The position numbers and the translations under genes were made by a program. Of a DNA stretch of 64,000 nt, positions 39,532 to 50,972 are shown one piece after another. The first letter of the stretch is position 1. The number at the start of each line of letters is the position of its first letter. The DNA is from Wickerhamiella versatilis. Taxonomy: Eukaryota. Under the pieces are notes generated by a model. That model saw only the letters and a list, made by a program, of their open reading frames with translations. It was not told the DNA's origin and ran no database searches. The stretch spans positions 806,001 through 870,000 of the forward strand of contig JAQOWU010000003.1 of assembly GCA_030867685.1 (NCBI GenBank), given 5' to 3'.

Positions 39532-40953
39532 CTAAATGCCGAAGGCTTCACCAAAAAAGTAATAATTATTCTCTTTGGCCCATTTTTCAGCATCCCATGT
39601 CAACTGCGGTGGTCCGCATGCAACCAAACATGAGGTTTTTTGATCATCAGAATCGAGGAATGTACCCACAGCATTGGTGAGACGAGGTCTTCCTTCATAA
39701 CGTCTAACTGACTCGGAGTTACTATAGCTTTCATCGTTGTCATGAATTTTGTATTCCGCTGCTAGGTTTTCAAGCTCTATGCCCTGAGCGTTAGCGTCAT
39801 TGTCGTATTCCTCATTCACTAGGGAGCTTTTTCGAGTGATATAAACATCACATTTCTTCACTCCAATGTTATCCAATACCTGGATGTCTTCCTCAAATCT
39901 TGTCGCCCAGATGAACTTATGACACGGATGGTTGCGAAGTGCCCCAGCCAAAGCGATTCCTGATCCTCCAGCAATTAAAACTACTTTTTTATAGCTGTAA
40001 GGGTCAAAAGGTGCATTAAACGGGCCTCTTACAGCTAGAGGCCGTGGTATGCGGAATCGAGTCTTCCTGATGACAAGTTTTATTGTATCGTCATCTGGTG
40101 TCGACGCAACAGTGTAAGGATGTGTTGACTCTAGCCACGTGAGTGGTCTGTTCAGGCGATGTGACAACCTGACATGTGCACCGACTGAGAATGTAGGTCC
40201 GAGAATATTTCGAGTTAAAGTCACGACTTCAAGTGTTGGTGAGATTGTTTCCACTTCATAGTTAGTTGTCGTTGCAGTTGTAATGATGCGCCATATCACA
40301 TTAACGAATAGTATAACCATGGCCATAATCACCATGACGTTCGCCTGCGGCCTGGAATGCCAAATAAGGAGTATTGTAGATATCCAGACGAGTGGTAAAT
40401 GAGCACCATAGAAAATATAGTACCATCTTTCTCTAAACGGCTTGAGGCTTGTAATTGCAATTATAACATAACACAAAAGAGATAACATACCAAAAACGTT
40501 GAAGAGCGACCAGAGATGACTCTGGACTCTATGCGTGGCATATTCATAATAATACGTAATTCCATGCTCTAGTGCAAACAGAACAGCGGTTCTACCTACC
40601 CATTTGTGCATGCGAGTTAATGGAATTACGTAGGTGCGCGGCAACCAGGCCGGTTTGGATGAGAGAAGCATTCCAAAAATGGAACCGCCAAATGCAAGTC
40701 GGCCACAACGCCTTGCGAGTTGTATAGCATCCGGATTATAGTGTATGAGCAGCCCAAAAAGGCATAAGACAATCCATATCGGTGCTAAGATCCACCAACG
40801 GATAGTCGGATACTGAAACTTTCTCTTAGGTCTCAAGAGACCCCATATCAAGCACGAAATAGCGTAAATAGTAAGCAATCCAACTGCCAAAGCTAGAAAC
40901 TCATAAGTCTTATGAGCATGGATGGCACTGCCATGCCGCTTGACAATAGCCAT
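39532..40953 (-). CDS. Ferric reductase-like / NOX-family transmembrane oxidoreductase (Fre8/Aim14-like)
   Basis: HKWVGR and other heme-ligand His, HPYTVAS FAD motif, AGGSGI, ACGP. Confidence 0.85.
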   Translation of the reverse strand: MAIVKRHGSAIHAHKTYEFLALAVGLLTIYAISCLIWGLLRPKRKFQYPTIRWWILAPIWIVLCLFGLLIHYNPDAIQLARRCGRLAFGGSIFGMLLSSKPAWLPRTYVIPLTRMHKWVGRTAVLFALEHGITYYYEYATHRVQSHLWSLFNVFGMLSLLCYVIIAITSLKPFRERWYYIFYGAHLPLVWISTILLIWHSRPQANVMVIMAMVILFVNVIWRIITTATTTNYEVETISPTLEVVTLTRNILGPTFSVGAHVRLSHRLNRPLTWLESTHPYTVASTPDDDTIKLVIRKTRFRIPRPLAVRGPFNAPFDPYSYKKVVLIAGGSGIALAGALRNHPCHKFIWATRFEEDIQVLDNIGVKKCDVYITRKSSLVNEEYDNDANAQGIELENLAAEYKIHDNDESYSNSESVRRYEGRPRLTNAVGTFLDSDDQKTSCLVACGPPQLTWDAEKWAKENNYYFFGEAFGI

Positions 40954-45933: not shown

Positions 45934-47241
45934 GAATAAGCCTACAGCCGGTGCGATTCAGAAGAGCTATGCCTGACCACACTGTGTCCTTGAAATAGTG
46001 GTTAAAACCTCCGAATTCATGGAGACCAAGTATGTTTAAGAATAATTACGAAAGCTGTGCTGAGCTCTGGGGAGCAATGTAAACACTATCACACTGGAGA
46101 ATTCTAGTCGGATCCGCCATATTCAATGCAATTACTTATAATTAAAAACAAAATAGGTGTAAACCATCCAAAGAGTCTCTTGAGACAGAATGCGGGTGCA
46201 AATGCTAGGGTGGATTGTTTTCCAACGATGCATCGGCTTTGTGGGCGGAGGTCTAATGCAGACTATCACGTAATTATGCTAGCAAATACATATATGCGTA
46301 TATTCGTAGTAAAAGCGAGTGGCTTCGTTGCACCATTAAGCGAGCAAATCCGACTGATAATTGTGCACTGCTGGATGAATTGAGAAAGAGTGTGTGGCAC
46401 ATATCGCAAAATGAATACTCACATTTAAGAGCTCTGATATACGTATATAAGTATATCTGAGGGGCCTCTACAACAAAGCTGGTTTTGCGAGAACCAACTC
46501 AATGTACCATGGCAGGTCTGAGTCCGACCAATTTATTGTGATTACCCTCATTCCACGAAAAATACGAGTAAAACTCTAACTTAGTGAAATGAAAGCTCAA
46601 CCATGTGATAATATTCGTAGGAACCTTTCAACAAGTATTGCAATTCCCCTGAAATGATCCTCGCTTATTATAATATGTAGGAGATGCTTTCTTGTCGATC
46701 TCTCGTGCTCAGTAATCTCTAAATATACTATATGCGTCACACATGTCAAATATCACTGACTAATAGCTGAAACGTCATCAGCCACGAGCGCCCTGCGTGT
46801 TTTCTTCGGGTTTGGGTAGTTGTTCGAAAGGATAAAATTTTAAATCAGCAAATCATTCCTCAATTTCTCATATACGTTAAATTTTAACGTGCCAAAATGG
46901 CCTGACCCTTTACTTCCATGTTGGGGAAATGATGACGGGATTACATATCAACTTCCACACTGGTCTGGGATAGTAGACTGCCTAAGGATAATCGCATCAG
47001 CGATATAGGCCTGTGATGGGTCAATCGCCAACTAGTCTGAAAAGTTTCAAAATTTTTGATAAAATAGGCTACTATCAGACGTATTGTCACGTCAAAAGTG
47101 ATGCACCCTAGCCCTGATAATTCCACCGCCACCGAGATCCAATGGGCACCGGATAAGGGTTCACGAGCCGATCCCGCGTAGTAAGAACCTAAGGGATTAC
47201 ACGATATCCCTGACTGCATAGCCTACACCTAACTTTTTGAT

Positions 47242-49044
47242 ATGGATCTCAACGAGCTGCCTGGAGAAGTGGCAGCTCAGACACCATCCCCACCGTTGTC
47301 CTCTGACAATACTCTAGGGAAGTCGCCGGGGACACCTGCGGGAGGGGCTGCGCCGGCCGTAGTACCCCCTTCAGCCGTGGGTCGTGGGTCATCGGGTCCA
47401 TTCACTCTGGACCTGAATATGGTTAAAATGCTCATGGCAGCAGTGAATGAACAACTTGGCGTTGACTTAGGTGATGCACAAATGGACGAAACCGCAGTCG
47501 TGGCAGAATCACCTGAACTTAGCCAGTCTATCAGGCAAGCTGGTGGAGTACCCCCTGAACAGAATCGGGATGCACCGCAAAAAGGTGAATATTCCCATGT
47601 ACGACTTATATGTGACGCCTGTGGCCACATAGTTGCAGCCGTGGCCGCAGCTGTCCTAAAAGCGATAATTGAGGCCGGGGAAGAGGCGGCTAGAGTAGGT
47701 GCACCACCGTCACGGATGGTTGCACCGTTGAGAAAGAAGAGAGGAGGTATTTTGGGCTTCAAGGAGCTCGCCGCCAAAGCGAATCTTAGTCCTTGGCATT
47801 TTCATCGGGTTTTCCGTTCTGTCACTGGGGTCACACCTAAAGCTTATGGTGAAGCACTATGGGACCACTTAATGCGTGAGAACGGTTTTGATGTTGAGGA
47901 ATCCTCTGTAGTTACAACATCGGCCAACGGAGGTACTTCAGGTGGGTCTGAAACTGGGGCAATGTTTGGCGTAGGATCGTCGTCAGCAGCATCATCTGAT
48001 GCGTCGAGTTCAAGCCCAAATTCAGCCCAAAAGCCGCAGGTCGGTTTTCCCTTAATTCCTAGCCCACCAATGCTGTACACTCAGAAGGATGATACCGGCA
48101 CTAATAATGTCACGCCAACTGGTACTGGAAGTGATACTTTACAGCGTACAGCTAGTATGGGTGCTAGTGGGTCGGACCGTAGTGGGAGGGTTCGCAAGGC
48201 TCGTAGTTTATCGAGATCAGGACGTTCTCGTTCTCGGCCACGGTCCGGAGCACCAGCCAGGATTAATACAGGTGTCTCATCACAGATGTACAACCAAAGA
48301 AGTCAGAGCCATGTTCGTGGACCAAGAGTATTTGGGGGTACAGTAAGTAATACGGATTTACCACCTACTCGGCTACAATCGAGATACGCCAATCGTCACC
48401 GTCATCATGCAAGCATAAGCGGAGGGGAGTTTGGTTCGAATTTCCTTGACTTGGGTCCCAGCCCCACCTCAGCCCTTGATATTCCGGTTTTCGACCCACC
48501 AGACCTCAACTCTCTGACTTTAACCATGCCACCTCTCCCAAGTACTCTGACTCCGCCACAACCGCCATCGGCATCTAGTGTCGCGCCAAGTCCTTCGGTA
48601 CTGGATCCACCCCAGCCAAATCCTGAACCTAATGCTTCTGGAGGTGCGCCATTCACAAATCTGAACCCACAGTGGCTAGCAAATCCGGCACAAGCCGTGC
48701 CTCAACAACAGGATCAACCCCTCGTGGCTCCTTCACTGTCATTCAACAATAATGTCTCTTTCCCAAATTCTGTTCCTAGTAATACTGGAGCTCTCAGTGG
48801 TATGCTTGCAGCAGAGGAATCTCCGCCAATGGCCACTCCTCCCCCAGCAGATGCTCTTGGATCGCTCCCTCAGCAATTTTATATGAGCAGTAAAGAAAAA
48901 ATTGACTTCGACAATGACTTCGGCCCAGCACCTGACCTATCTAACGATGATGATATTGGCATTTTTAACTTAGGATCTTTGGACCAGGACAACCGCCTCC
49001 TTGCAGACCCAGTCTCTAACGGAGGAAACGAAGCTCTTTGGTAA
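47242..49044 (+). CDS. Ada/AraC-type helix-turn-helix putative transcription factor (600 aa)
   Basis: KKRGGILGFKELAAKANLSPWHFHRVFRSVTGVTPKAY resembles the AraC-type HTH of Ada proteins; long Ser/Pro-rich region and acidic-hydrophobic C-terminus. Confidence 0.8.
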   Translation: MDLNELPGEVAAQTPSPPLSSDNTLGKSPGTPAGGAAPAVVPPSAVGRGSSGPFTLDLNMVKMLMAAVNEQLGVDLGDAQMDETAVVAESPELSQSIRQAGGVPPEQNRDAPQKGEYSHVRLICDACGHIVAAVAAAVLKAIIEAGEEAARVGAPPSRMVAPLRKKRGGILGFKELAAKANLSPWHFHRVFRSVTGVTPKAYGEALWDHLMRENGFDVEESSVVTTSANGGTSGGSETGAMFGVGSSSAASSDASSSSPNSAQKPQVGFPLIPSPPMLYTQKDDTGTNNVTPTGTGSDTLQRTASMGASGSDRSGRVRKARSLSRSGRSRSRPRSGAPARINTGVSSQMYNQRSQSHVRGPRVFGGTVSNTDLPPTRLQSRYANRHRHHASISGGEFGSNFLDLGPSPTSALDIPVFDPPDLNSLTLTMPPLPSTLTPPQPPSASSVAPSPSVLDPPQPNPEPNASGGAPFTNLNPQWLANPAQAVPQQQDQPLVAPSLSFNNNVSFPNSVPSNTGALSGMLAAEESPPMATPPPADALGSLPQQFYMSSKEKIDFDNDFGPAPDLSNDDDIGIFNLGSLDQDNRLLADPVSNGGNEALW

Positions 49045-49251: not shown

Positions 49252-50223
49252 TTACCGAGGATCGAGTCCACGCCAGAGGTAGACTTTCTGATCCCACCCA
49301 GTGGTAGCCACCCAGCCTGGTTCCCCCCAAAGACACCAATCGCCATCGCTAACGAACTCCGTATGTTGTGAGAACGTACGAATAAGGCCCTGTGGGCCTC
49401 TGCCCATTACATGACGCTCGCCCGGCATATTTAGCCACACCTTAGCCGTCATATCATAAGATGTGGTTAACAGATGTAATGCAGAGTGCGGGCTCCACCT
49501 CACCTGTTTGACAGGAAGTTGGTGACCATTAAAGACAGTTACAGGCGAGCTTACATTTCGCATATCCCAAACTTTTGCAAGACGATCTGAGCCGCTTGTT
49601 GCACATATGGTTTGGGAATATTTGTTCCAGTCACAGGCCAGGCATTCTCCACCGAGGACTGCTGGTATCTTGGCTACTTCTGGTTTTGGCGCTCTTGCGT
49701 CCCACACACGTGAAAACGAGTCCGAGTGAGCACTCAGAAGCATAGTCGGGTTCGATGGATGATACCTTGCCTGATAAATACAGCTTTGAGGCGCCTCGGG
49801 ACAAAGTGTAAGAATCGACCGATCGATATTTGGGGACCAAAGCTTGATGGTACCATCCCAGGAACTGGAGGCAAACTGGGTCTTATCCAGTGAGCTCCAA
49901 TCAACACTGAACACCTCTCGCGCATGCTCTGCCCACACACCCAACAAATCAGTGCCAAGATCAAATAGACGAACTTTACCGTCGCCACAGGCGGCAATAA
50001 ACTGGTTTTCATGAAGCTCTGACCAGGCCACACTCGACACTGAATCCTGTGTGTCAAAGTGGCGGACCTCAAGAAACTGACCAGAAGGGCCCATCTCTAC
50101 CACATGTATACGACCATTTCCTACTAGCCCGAAGTTTGCTGATGCGCCCACAACAAGACGATTGTCAAAAAATGGCGAGAATCTTACAGAAGTTGCACTA
50201 AACCCTCGAGTGTTAAACTCCAT
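49252..50223 (-). CDS. PEX7: PTS2 receptor Pex7 (WD40)
   Basis: FSPFFDNRL, NFGLVGNGR, AWSE.HEN, EH.REVFSV.W, SSWDGTIK.W, HTEFV, TGWD. Confidence 0.96.
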   Translation of the reverse strand: MEFNTRGFSATSVRFSPFFDNRLVVGASANFGLVGNGRIHVVEMGPSGQFLEVRHFDTQDSVSSVAWSELHENQFIAACGDGKVRLFDLGTDLLGVWAEHAREVFSVDWSSLDKTQFASSSWDGTIKLWSPNIDRSILTLCPEAPQSCIYQARYHPSNPTMLLSAHSDSFSRVWDARAPKPEVAKIPAVLGGECLACDWNKYSQTICATSGSDRLAKVWDMRNVSSPVTVFNGHQLPVKQVRWSPHSALHLLTTSYDMTAKVWLNMPGERHVMGRGPQGLIRTFSQHTEFVSDGDWCLWGEPGWVATTGWDQKVYLWRGLDPR

Positions 50224-50229
50224 GCCAGA

Positions 50230-50427
50230 CTACAAATGCTGTTTTCCAACGCCTGCAATGAAGTTCCCAGGTATGACGATATGGCCCACGGTTCTATGCT
50301 CACCAGTAGATTGTTGTTCTATTGCGTCTGCCAATATTAAATCCTCACGGTGATCGTAACACTGAAGCGTACCGTATATGTGCCTACCGTCCGTTAACTT
50401 AACTCTGAGGACAGACCCCAAAAGCAT
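50230..50427 (-). CDS. MAK31: Sm-like protein, NatC auxiliary subunit Mak31/Naa38-like (65 aa)
   Basis: LRV.LTDGR...G.L.C.D...LIL...E Sm1 motif and R.VG.IVIPG..I Sm2 motif. Confidence 0.72.
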   Translation of the reverse strand: MLLGSVLRVKLTDGRHIYGTLQCYDHREDLILADAIEQQSTGEHRTVGHIVIPGNFIAGVGKQHL

Positions 50428-50972
50428 TAGTAATTTCTCCTCAGATCAGCCGTCCAATGAGACACCAAGCCAGGATGACAACCTAGAAATATATGTGGTT
50501 CATGTTAAGCCTTTAACCTCTCCATTACGAATTTTGTAATTTATTGGTTCCTCCAACTGCTTGTAATAATGGGACATATTATGATACTAAGTCATCGTAT
50601 TCCCGGTATAGCCATGTCCGTAGTTCCGATGAGCGGCACAGTAATAGATCCCGTGCCCGAAGGCAGCCGTATTGAGAAGTACCGCAGTCCGCAGTGAGAA
50701 GATCATCGCAGGAGTTTTCGGTGACATATAATTTAATTTCTTTAGAACTGTTTCGGTTCGTAGACTAGATAATTATTGTTGACCACAATCAGCAGCTTCT
50801 TTCTATACAGGTATGCCTTTCTGGGACTAAATCAATTCTTCCCCACGAGCCCACGGCCTTCCATTACCCCTTACCTCGTAGTTCGAACTATCAAGGGCTA
50901 GGGTATCACTAGTGCTGCTGACCTACCATCTGCAGTCCGTGTACCCCACATAGCAATTGAAGGGAATTCGTG

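Follow-up and report, generated by a model that had tools for sequence, protein, structure and literature searches.

A zinc-less, Ada-derived helix-turn-helix protein of Wickerhamiella versatilis belongs to a widespread budding-yeast family

Introduction

What becomes of a DNA-repair switch once the part that senses damage is gone? The question is raised by an open reading frame (ORF) of Wickerhamiella versatilis, P0001, at positions 47242–49044 on the plus strand of the 64,000-nucleotide stretch of DNA analysed here (the window). A sequence-only reading had seen in it a bacterial-type Ada/AraC helix-turn-helix (HTH) recast as a eukaryotic-style transcription factor without the zinc/methyl-acceptor domain of Ada, possibly repurposed for a regulon other than alkylation repair. 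E. coli Ada is described as reading its A box through R45 and R71, and its B box, GCAA, through F114, H115 and R118 (PMC4437013). In Aspergillus, the fungal Ada derivative AfMPT (AFUA_5G06350) is reported as a shown repair protein that induces an alkyltransferase (AGT), its regulated gene, and fungal MPT has been traced to an old transfer from Firmicutes (O'Hanlon et al., PMC3439912); AraC-type HTHs are moreover listed among fungal transcription-factor domains (PMC5415576). Here, we describe P0001 as the zinc-less form within a widespread Saccharomycotina family for which we found no characterisation.

Results

P0001 is transcribed as a single-exon gene

The intronless ORF encodes 600 amino acids and is directly preceded by an in-frame TAA (47230–47232). 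Searches of the 9.9-Mb genome returned one copy of the gene, and its AraC-type HTH was the only one found there. RNA-seq data from four runs (same species label, at most three samples from two studies, ~90% of reads at least 99% alike) placed the 5′ ends of the transcript 29–58 nt upstream of the ATG, at ~47184 and ~47213, defining a plus-strand 5′ leader (47183–47241) with no ATG before 47242. Loose read ends in run X11 carried adapter-like sequence, which we take to be the template-switch oligo, before 47183 (30 reads) and before 47212 (70 reads), and reads in runs X7 and X8 started at 47200–47222. Depth rose from ~6–15x at 46901–47160 to ~135–395x over most of the ORF, and five of the six fixed differences between a second strain and the reference in the coding sequence are synonymous. 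Loose ends together with an A>T call at 47602, 48541 and 48549 match adapter sequence and were rejected as artefacts.

No splice joint was seen in the gene's reads in any of the four runs (threshold 3% / 3 reads). Since, in addition, the 5′ ends lie so close to the ATG, no upstream exon hides a zinc domain—the outcome of a check that the sequence-only reading had proposed. A donor-like GTAAGA (47181) and a branch-like CTAAC (47229) are present, yet no joint was seen.

The gap upstream of the gene had been called one of the longest in the window, and at 1308 bp it does rank second among 40 ORFs ranked, but it is not empty. It holds a separate, unannotated plus-strand RNA (46317–46728, with a minor end near 46875) whose longest ORF has 25 codons and whose adapter-marked 5′ ends fall at 46317–46321. 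This RNA is abundant in poly(A) data, reaching ~1135x in a poly(A) run versus ~150x for the P0001 gene, and lies below the gene in depth in random-primed runs; 16 reads point to a possible antisense start at 46693. It has no Rfam match, no significant fold (z −1.0) and no second copy in the genome, and may be either an upstream lncRNA with a regulatory role or the mRNA of a micropeptide.

The zinc domain is absent from the gene, the gap and the genome searches

Pfam gave no Ada_Zn_binding match at E ≤ 1 in the 600-aa protein, and six frames of the upstream gap contain no CRPxC-type motif. An HMM built from 179 yeast zinc domains, which scored five positive controls at 37–77 bits, never exceeded 1.5 bits per domain when run against all six frames of the gap and of the 64-kb window. 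Across the genome, neither the PF02805 profile (with a control that rang in 5 of 14 genomes) nor a yeast zinc-domain query (run without a positive control) found anything. Pfam, six-frame and HMM searches hence agree with the earlier observation that ORF and gap are free of CRPxC, and the zinc/methyl-acceptor domain is absent from gene, gap and genome searches. P0001 possesses neither the four-Cys domain (PF02805) with its methyl acceptor Cys38 nor, the domain being gone, the A-box arginines R45 and R71.

Could the domain nevertheless be hidden, either in an upstream exon or in a separate gene acting as a sensor in trans? The gap is long and partly transcribed, split Ada systems are described in bacteria (PMC10957082), and some database calls of other yeasts start just after the zinc domain and may be truncated. 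However, the reads contain no joint and place the transcript starts close to the ATG, the searches find nothing, and the N-termini of twelve relatives are free of cysteine, so that we regard a hidden domain as extremely improbable.

P0001 retains the DNA-binding half of N-Ada within a largely disordered chain

An AlphaFold2 model of the protein contains ordered helices at aa 58–72, 116–152 and 173–213 (pLDDT ~83–95); the rest is disordered, with ~80% of the chain below pLDDT 70 and no ordered region after aa 220. A disordered, Cys-free N-terminus (aa 1–57; 47242–47412; pLDDT 38–46 over aa 1–50) stands where the zinc domain would be. It is followed by helix A (aa 58–72; 47413–47457; pLDDT 89–95), which in alignments directly follows the zinc domain of yeast orthologues, and by helix B (aa 116–152; 47587–47697) with its conserved H..L...AC.H motif. 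A basic arm, RKKRGG (aa 164–169; 47731–47748), which may serve as a nuclear localization signal (NLS) and/or as a minor-groove arm, precedes the single Ada-type HTH and its next helix (47761–47880), where W185, H186 and R189 take the places of Ada F114, H115 and R118. The disordered remainder comprises a clade-specific basic motif, GRVRK...RSRSRPR (48184–48249), a Pro/Ser-rich region (48454–48876) called from composition and model disorder, and an acidic-hydrophobic tail (48892–49041) that is a probable activation domain; all of these features lie on the plus strand. The last 60 residues have a net charge of −9 and six F/W/Y, and the tail charge is −9 to −14 in ten close members scored, except for P0002 (−7).

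The features named in the sequence-only reading are thus in place: the AraC-like HTH, put at about 47755–47850, coincides with a Pfam HTH_AraC match at aa 174–202 (47761–47847; E 2.6e-6; 27.8 bits versus a cut-off of 26.6), and the basic patch, RS-rich stretch (aa 315–336), Pro/Ser region (aa 401–550) and acidic-aromatic tail are all as described. An HTH_18 match covers only positions 1–30 of 80 and stays below its cut-off. The two cysteines of CDAC, C124 and C127, are indeed the only ones in the protein, and both lie inside helix B. We rejected them as a zinc-site remnant or metal site: C127 is the family-wide cysteine of the helix after the zinc domain, and C124 occurs in only 8 of 11 close relatives.

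By sequence, the PDB entries closest to P0001 are structures of E. coli N-Ada (1wpk, 1u8b and 1zgw; E 4e-5 to 1e-4), and the best NCBIfam match is E. coli Ada. The top structural match is also N-Ada (1u8b; model residues 114–209 to chain 78–138, VIA Z 7.4, rmsd 1.3, 61 aligned), with a Z score that lies within the range of common helical arrangements and is therefore not decisive alone. Foldseek returned no match at E ≤ 0.001 (best E 0.13), and the ESM Atlas gave only leads below 0.9 for aa 50–220. A zinc-bearing relative from metagenome locus L005 matched 1u8b with Z 13.7 (rmsd 10.4, 132 aligned) and 1eyf with Z 9.3, and in the zinc-bearing model helix 80–93 corresponds to helix A. In the P0001 model, the two helices A and B together with the HTH make up a helical unit of high confidence that resembles the C-terminal subdomain of Ada.

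P0001 accordingly shares with the E. coli Ada N-domain (1u8b, 1wpk, 1zgw) a linker helix and a single HTH; it lacks the zinc domain, Cys38, R45/R71 and the C-terminal alkyltransferase, and adds helix A, an RRGG arm and a 390-aa disordered tail. AraC/XylS regulators (MarA, Rob, ToxT) have the same HTH fold (VIA Z 5–6.6), but two HTHs in a domain of ~100 aa, whereas P0001 has one. P0001 would work like the B-box half of Ada, yet lacks defining features both of Ada/MPT sensors and of two-HTH AraC proteins.

P0001 is an inherited member of an old fungal Ada lineage

The ten closest proteins share 47–89% identity with P0001 over the core, and all lack the zinc domain. The only named one is Starmerella bacillaris DASB73_007040 (P0011; 825 aa, annotated as hypothetical only), which is 47% identical over the core, zinc-less, and of the same clade with the same motif. 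We call the group Wickerhamiella/Starmerella (W/S)-type, a name drawn from this protein and the tree; none of its 12 members has a zinc domain, and their N-termini, up to ~300 aa in length, have no cysteine before helix B.

The family extends well beyond this group. With a Kuraishia protein as query, 330 clusters matched, and the named members come from Komagataella, Ogataea, Pachysolen, Candida, Pichia, Metschnikowia, Brettanomyces and Wickerhamomyces. P0001 carries the family block of helix A, helix B (AC.H) and [RK]RGG-HTH, and a family profile scores it at E 6.6e-34; what it lacks is the majority state of an N-terminal four-Cys domain. This domain is kept in 147 of 175 yeast-type representatives (cluster-member duplicates, as well as P0045 and P0048, which have four Cys but were missed by the pattern, are left out of these counts), in line with the statement of the sequence-only reading that related proteins of other fungi retain it. 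Among the zinc-bearing relatives, annotated as 'Ada DNA repair metal-binding domain' proteins, are K. phaffii PAS_chr3_0778, C. albicans KAF6065177.1, Kuraishia and Ogataea proteins, ARAD1C05962p (Blastobotrys) and TRICI_002865 (Trichomonascus); they share helix A, helix B, the RRGG-HTH and the acidic disordered tail with P0001, but keep the four-Cys domain.

In a quick maximum-likelihood tree of 74 chosen rows (no bootstrap, midpoint-rooted, zinc columns kept), the 11 zinc-less W/S-type rows form one clade (SH-aLRT 99), and 60 yeast-type rows stand apart from 14 short MPT/bacterial rows (SH-aLRT 99). The W/S clade has a long stem branch (1.23) and falls among Dipodascales-like rows without a settled position.

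Gene order was compared in seven eukaryote-type metagenome loci. In the window, the convergent neighbour of P0001 is a minus-strand, PEX7-like WD40 gene (49252–50223), which marks the syntenic position. At L005, a zinc-bearing copy is likewise convergent with a PEX7-like gene, whose product is 41% identical to the window's WD40 protein (E 6e-97). A ferric-reductase-like gene (39532–40953, minus strand), presumably resembling AIM14/YNO1, also lies in the window; in L009 (61–1515) and L010 (1254–2708), which carry the same protein and represent distant yeasts, its homologue has the arrangement seen in the window, upstream of the Ada-like gene and in divergent orientation. A short Sm/Lsm-like frame (50230–50445, minus strand) immediately upstream of the PEX7-like gene has no ATG of its own in frame and is probably part of an intron-containing gene. 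In S. cerevisiae, DOP1 is the neighbour of PEX7, an arrangement that would be consistent with the Ada-derived gene having been lost there.

Because of the tree and the PEX7 synteny, P0001 is best read as an inherited gene that lost a domain rather than a new import. Recent horizontal transfer from bacteria is ruled out by the same two lines of evidence, and the idea of a fresh bacterial recast gives way to an origin in the old fungal Ada lineage.

Zinc-less proteins also occur in Zygosaccharomyces, Meyerozyma, Nadsonia and Yarrowia, and as a second copy in Blastobotrys, and these do not group with the W/S clade in the tree. Some may be gene calls started too late; taken at the sequence level, zinc loss appears clade-wide in W/S and recurrent in yeasts. 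The Zygosaccharomyces cluster P0292 (ZYRO0E05544g orthologue), with P0278 and P0299, represents a strongly diverged zinc-less Saccharomycetaceae member that starts at helix A and has its own GR[IM]xRA[ST] motif. Blastobotrys adeninivorans holds a zinc-less (ARAD1B08866p, P0225) and a zinc-bearing copy (ARAD1C05962p, P0014) in one species.

A literature search by 12 locus tags and by topic, with subscription journals outside its coverage, found no study of the yeast family, and the supplements of two Yarrowia transcription-factor papers do not contain F18458. With most representatives retaining the domain and no study found, the yeast orthologues are thus not uniformly zinc-less nor, within the reach of this search, already characterised; the two together would have undercut the original proposal. 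In Table S1 of the MPT survey, MPT is scored as absent from P. pastoris, Y. lipolytica and S. cerevisiae, and the proteins of C. albicans and D. hansenii are entered as MPT (PMC3439912). P. pastoris and Y. lipolytica do have family members (P0062 and P0038), and the C. albicans member lacks R71. The absence scored for S. cerevisiae may explain the lack of a published study.

Residue changes began before the zinc domain was lost

For comparison we used Pezizomycotina MPT-like proteins (P0279–P0298; five named Pezizomycotina), fungal Ada derivatives which, like AfMPT (itself not in the compared set), have one HTH and often an acidic tail. These canonical short proteins keep T34 (a residue with a role in Ada), R45 and R71 in 19 of 19 cases; their spacer from Cys69 to the HTH, where located, measures 45–71 aa, against 112–306 in yeasts, and they have no RRGG arm. 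When residues are matched by their offset from Cys, none of 179 yeast four-Cys domains has Arg at position 71 (one has Lys; 15 of 47 extra yeast proteins, which do not show the four-Cys pattern, were left out of this set). Among the 147 four-Cys proteins, 57 have R/K at position 45, 116 have Asp at position 43 and 22 keep T34, while R39 is kept in 142 and P40 and the four Cys are also retained. The net charge of the zinc core has a median of 0 in yeasts versus +5/+6 in two bacterial Ada proteins. In P0247, P0261 and P0269, Pichia-like members among them, the fourth zinc ligand (last Cys) is replaced; they are a possible intermediate of domain decay.

The other side of the protein behaves differently. 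The recognition-helix W/H/R is invariant in 172 of 172 yeast-type proteins (3 of 175 without a located HTH left out), with P0001 supplying W185/H186/R189, and 211 of 222 yeast-type proteins, against none of 16 controls, carry an [RK]RGG arm ahead of the HTH (the pattern missed the HTH of 5 of 227 yeast rows and 7 of 23 controls, which are left out). Since zinc-bearing members lack R71 and carry the RRGG arm, these comparisons argue that recasting began before zinc loss, in zinc-bearing yeast members. The eukaryotic-style recast is hence not confined to P0001: long, disordered acidic tails and the basic arm are found throughout the budding-yeast family, and canonical fungal MPT proteins have acidic tails as well. 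The residue analysis likewise questions the 'Ada repair' database label of the yeast family.

RGG and RS motifs also typify RNA-binding proteins. An adaptor that binds chromatin or RNA non-specifically, through RGG arm, RS motif and disordered body, would account for the solitary HTH, for the conserved gain of RGG and RS-type basic motifs, and for a chain that is mostly of low pLDDT. It would leave unexplained why exactly the three base-contacting positions are invariant throughout, and why the acidic-hydrophobic composition of the tail is conserved; we rate it as improbable.

A basic motif arose in the W/S-type clade

The pattern GR[VI]xK-x(2-14)-RSRxR lies 71–179 aa after the HTH in 11 of 11 W/S-type members versus 0 of 164 others. 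Defined on these 11 members, it was then found in a twelfth, P0276, that was retrieved later, and it arose in none of 5000 shuffles of each of the 12 tails. The RxRxxS within it is presumably a basophilic-kinase consensus. An RRxS site before the HTH shows the opposite distribution, being present in 96 of 161 other yeasts versus 2 of 11 W/S-type proteins.

The motif bears on whether P0001 is merely a decaying relic of the adaptive response without current function. The W/S clade is described as fast-evolving and prone to losing repair genes (PMC12629084), and its stem branch is long. A relic is nonetheless very unlikely, considering that the intact ORF is well expressed, that its HTH is near-identical to those of distant yeasts, and that all 12 W/S-type members share a newly conserved motif.

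Targets are probably not alkylation-repair genes

The only PF01035/TIGR00589 match in the genome (L003:1447–1863; G000:C1, near 259198) carries Trp where the acceptor Cys would stand; it reads PWWRV, a signature that we take to denote an ATL-type protein. P0001 itself has no fused alkyltransferase. PF02870 gave nothing in the genome, and none of six PCHRV-coding sites is an AGT. An active alkyltransferase gene was not found in the genome, by a search that scores best candidates only, so that the count is a lower bound. AAT-N6-GCAA occurs nowhere in the 547 bp upstream of the ATL-like gene, once in the 1.3-kb gap and eight times in the window, a scan that tells little by itself.

W/S yeasts are reported to have lost numerous repair genes: in three fast-evolving lineages taken together, of which W/S is one, most strains lack a set of seven genes that includes MGT1, although an MGT1 of putatively bacterial origin occurs in some W/S species (PMC12629084). 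Table S1 of the MPT survey scores Y. lipolytica with neither MPT nor AGT (PMC3439912). In C. albicans, MGT1 is MMS-induced (log2 2.26), partly via Rad53, and S. cerevisiae MGT1 is not (PMC9317300). A fungal Ada-like protein reported to act beyond repair is SaraC of Stereum hirsutum, a bifunctional regulator/O6-methylguanine methyltransferase; P0001 has no enzymatic domain (PMC9769804).

Only the direct sensor might be gone, with P0001 still activating genes of the response to DNA damage or alkylation, for instance the ATL-like gene, either constitutively or under the control of a checkpoint kinase. Its recognition residues equal the B-box readers of Ada, AfMPT induces AGT in Aspergillus (where its deletion did not cause MMS sensitivity; PMC3439912), C. 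albicans MGT1 responds to MMS partly through Rad53, and an ATL-like gene is present. But no AGT gene was found, the region upstream of the ATL-like gene has no AAT-N6-GCAA, and the HTH is still near-invariant in yeasts that shed repair genes; we consider continued service in repair rather unlikely. As to the repurposed regulon proposed at the outset, the Ada-derived, sensor-less protein stands, and repurposing would be a reasonable reading given that no AGT gene was found. Targets are probably not alkylation-repair genes. In view of the MMS induction of C. albicans MGT1 and the strong retention of the four Cys and R39-P40, zinc-bearing yeast orthologues may still sense alkylation, in which case the decoupling would be confined to zinc-less lineages.

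Discussion

Our best explanation, which we hold to be probable, is that P0001 is an expressed, vertically inherited derivative of the N-Ada half, of the fungal MPT lineage, and acts as an alkylation-blind, sequence-specific transcription factor. Its anatomy suggests a role in RNA polymerase II transcription, with DNA binding, nuclear location and activation all deduced from its parts. In the scheme we propose, the starting point would be Ada/MPT of ascomycetes; in yeasts, the A-box residues would then have decayed while the arm and spacer were gained, before full zinc loss and motif gain in the W/S-type clade. The recognition helix would read a GCAA-like (B-box) half-site, and the RRGG arm would supply the backbone or minor-groove contact of Ada R45/R71, so that binding would need no Cys methylation. 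GRVRK..RSRSRPR would be an NLS or a switch under kinase control, providing the input that formerly came from the lost sensor, and the acidic tail would activate RNA polymerase II transcription. Some points speak against parts of this scheme: a single HTH reading ~4 bp gives little specificity, the structural match of P0001 is modest, and early decay has to contend with retention of the four Cys, R39 and P40, and of R/K45 in 57 of 147, and with the MMS induction of C. albicans MGT1, which would suit a sensor still at work in zinc-bearing yeasts.

A broader scenario is no more than tentative. Budding yeasts may have domesticated a bacterial repair sensor as an overlooked class of transcription factor, with the arm freeing binding from the methyl switch, the zinc domain lost repeatedly (in the W/S-type clade, and apparently in Zygosaccharomyces, Yarrowia and Nadsonia and in Meyerozyma and Blastobotrys copies), and, in the W/S-type clade, a kinase-controlled motif as input for a non-repair regulon, with tuning by the upstream non-coding RNA; the conserved ferric-reductase-like neighbour would make an iron/ROS-related regulon possible.

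Domain loss is in itself a familiar process; the feature described here is real, clade-wide and testable. It belongs to a family whose DNA-reading helix is near-invariant and which is present in most of the budding-yeast lineages sampled, among them Komagataella, Ogataea, Yarrowia and Candida. Within that family, nature has in the zinc-less W/S form uncoupled DNA binding from sensing, which allows a test of how a repair switch obtained by horizontal transfer can turn into a general regulator in eukaryotes.
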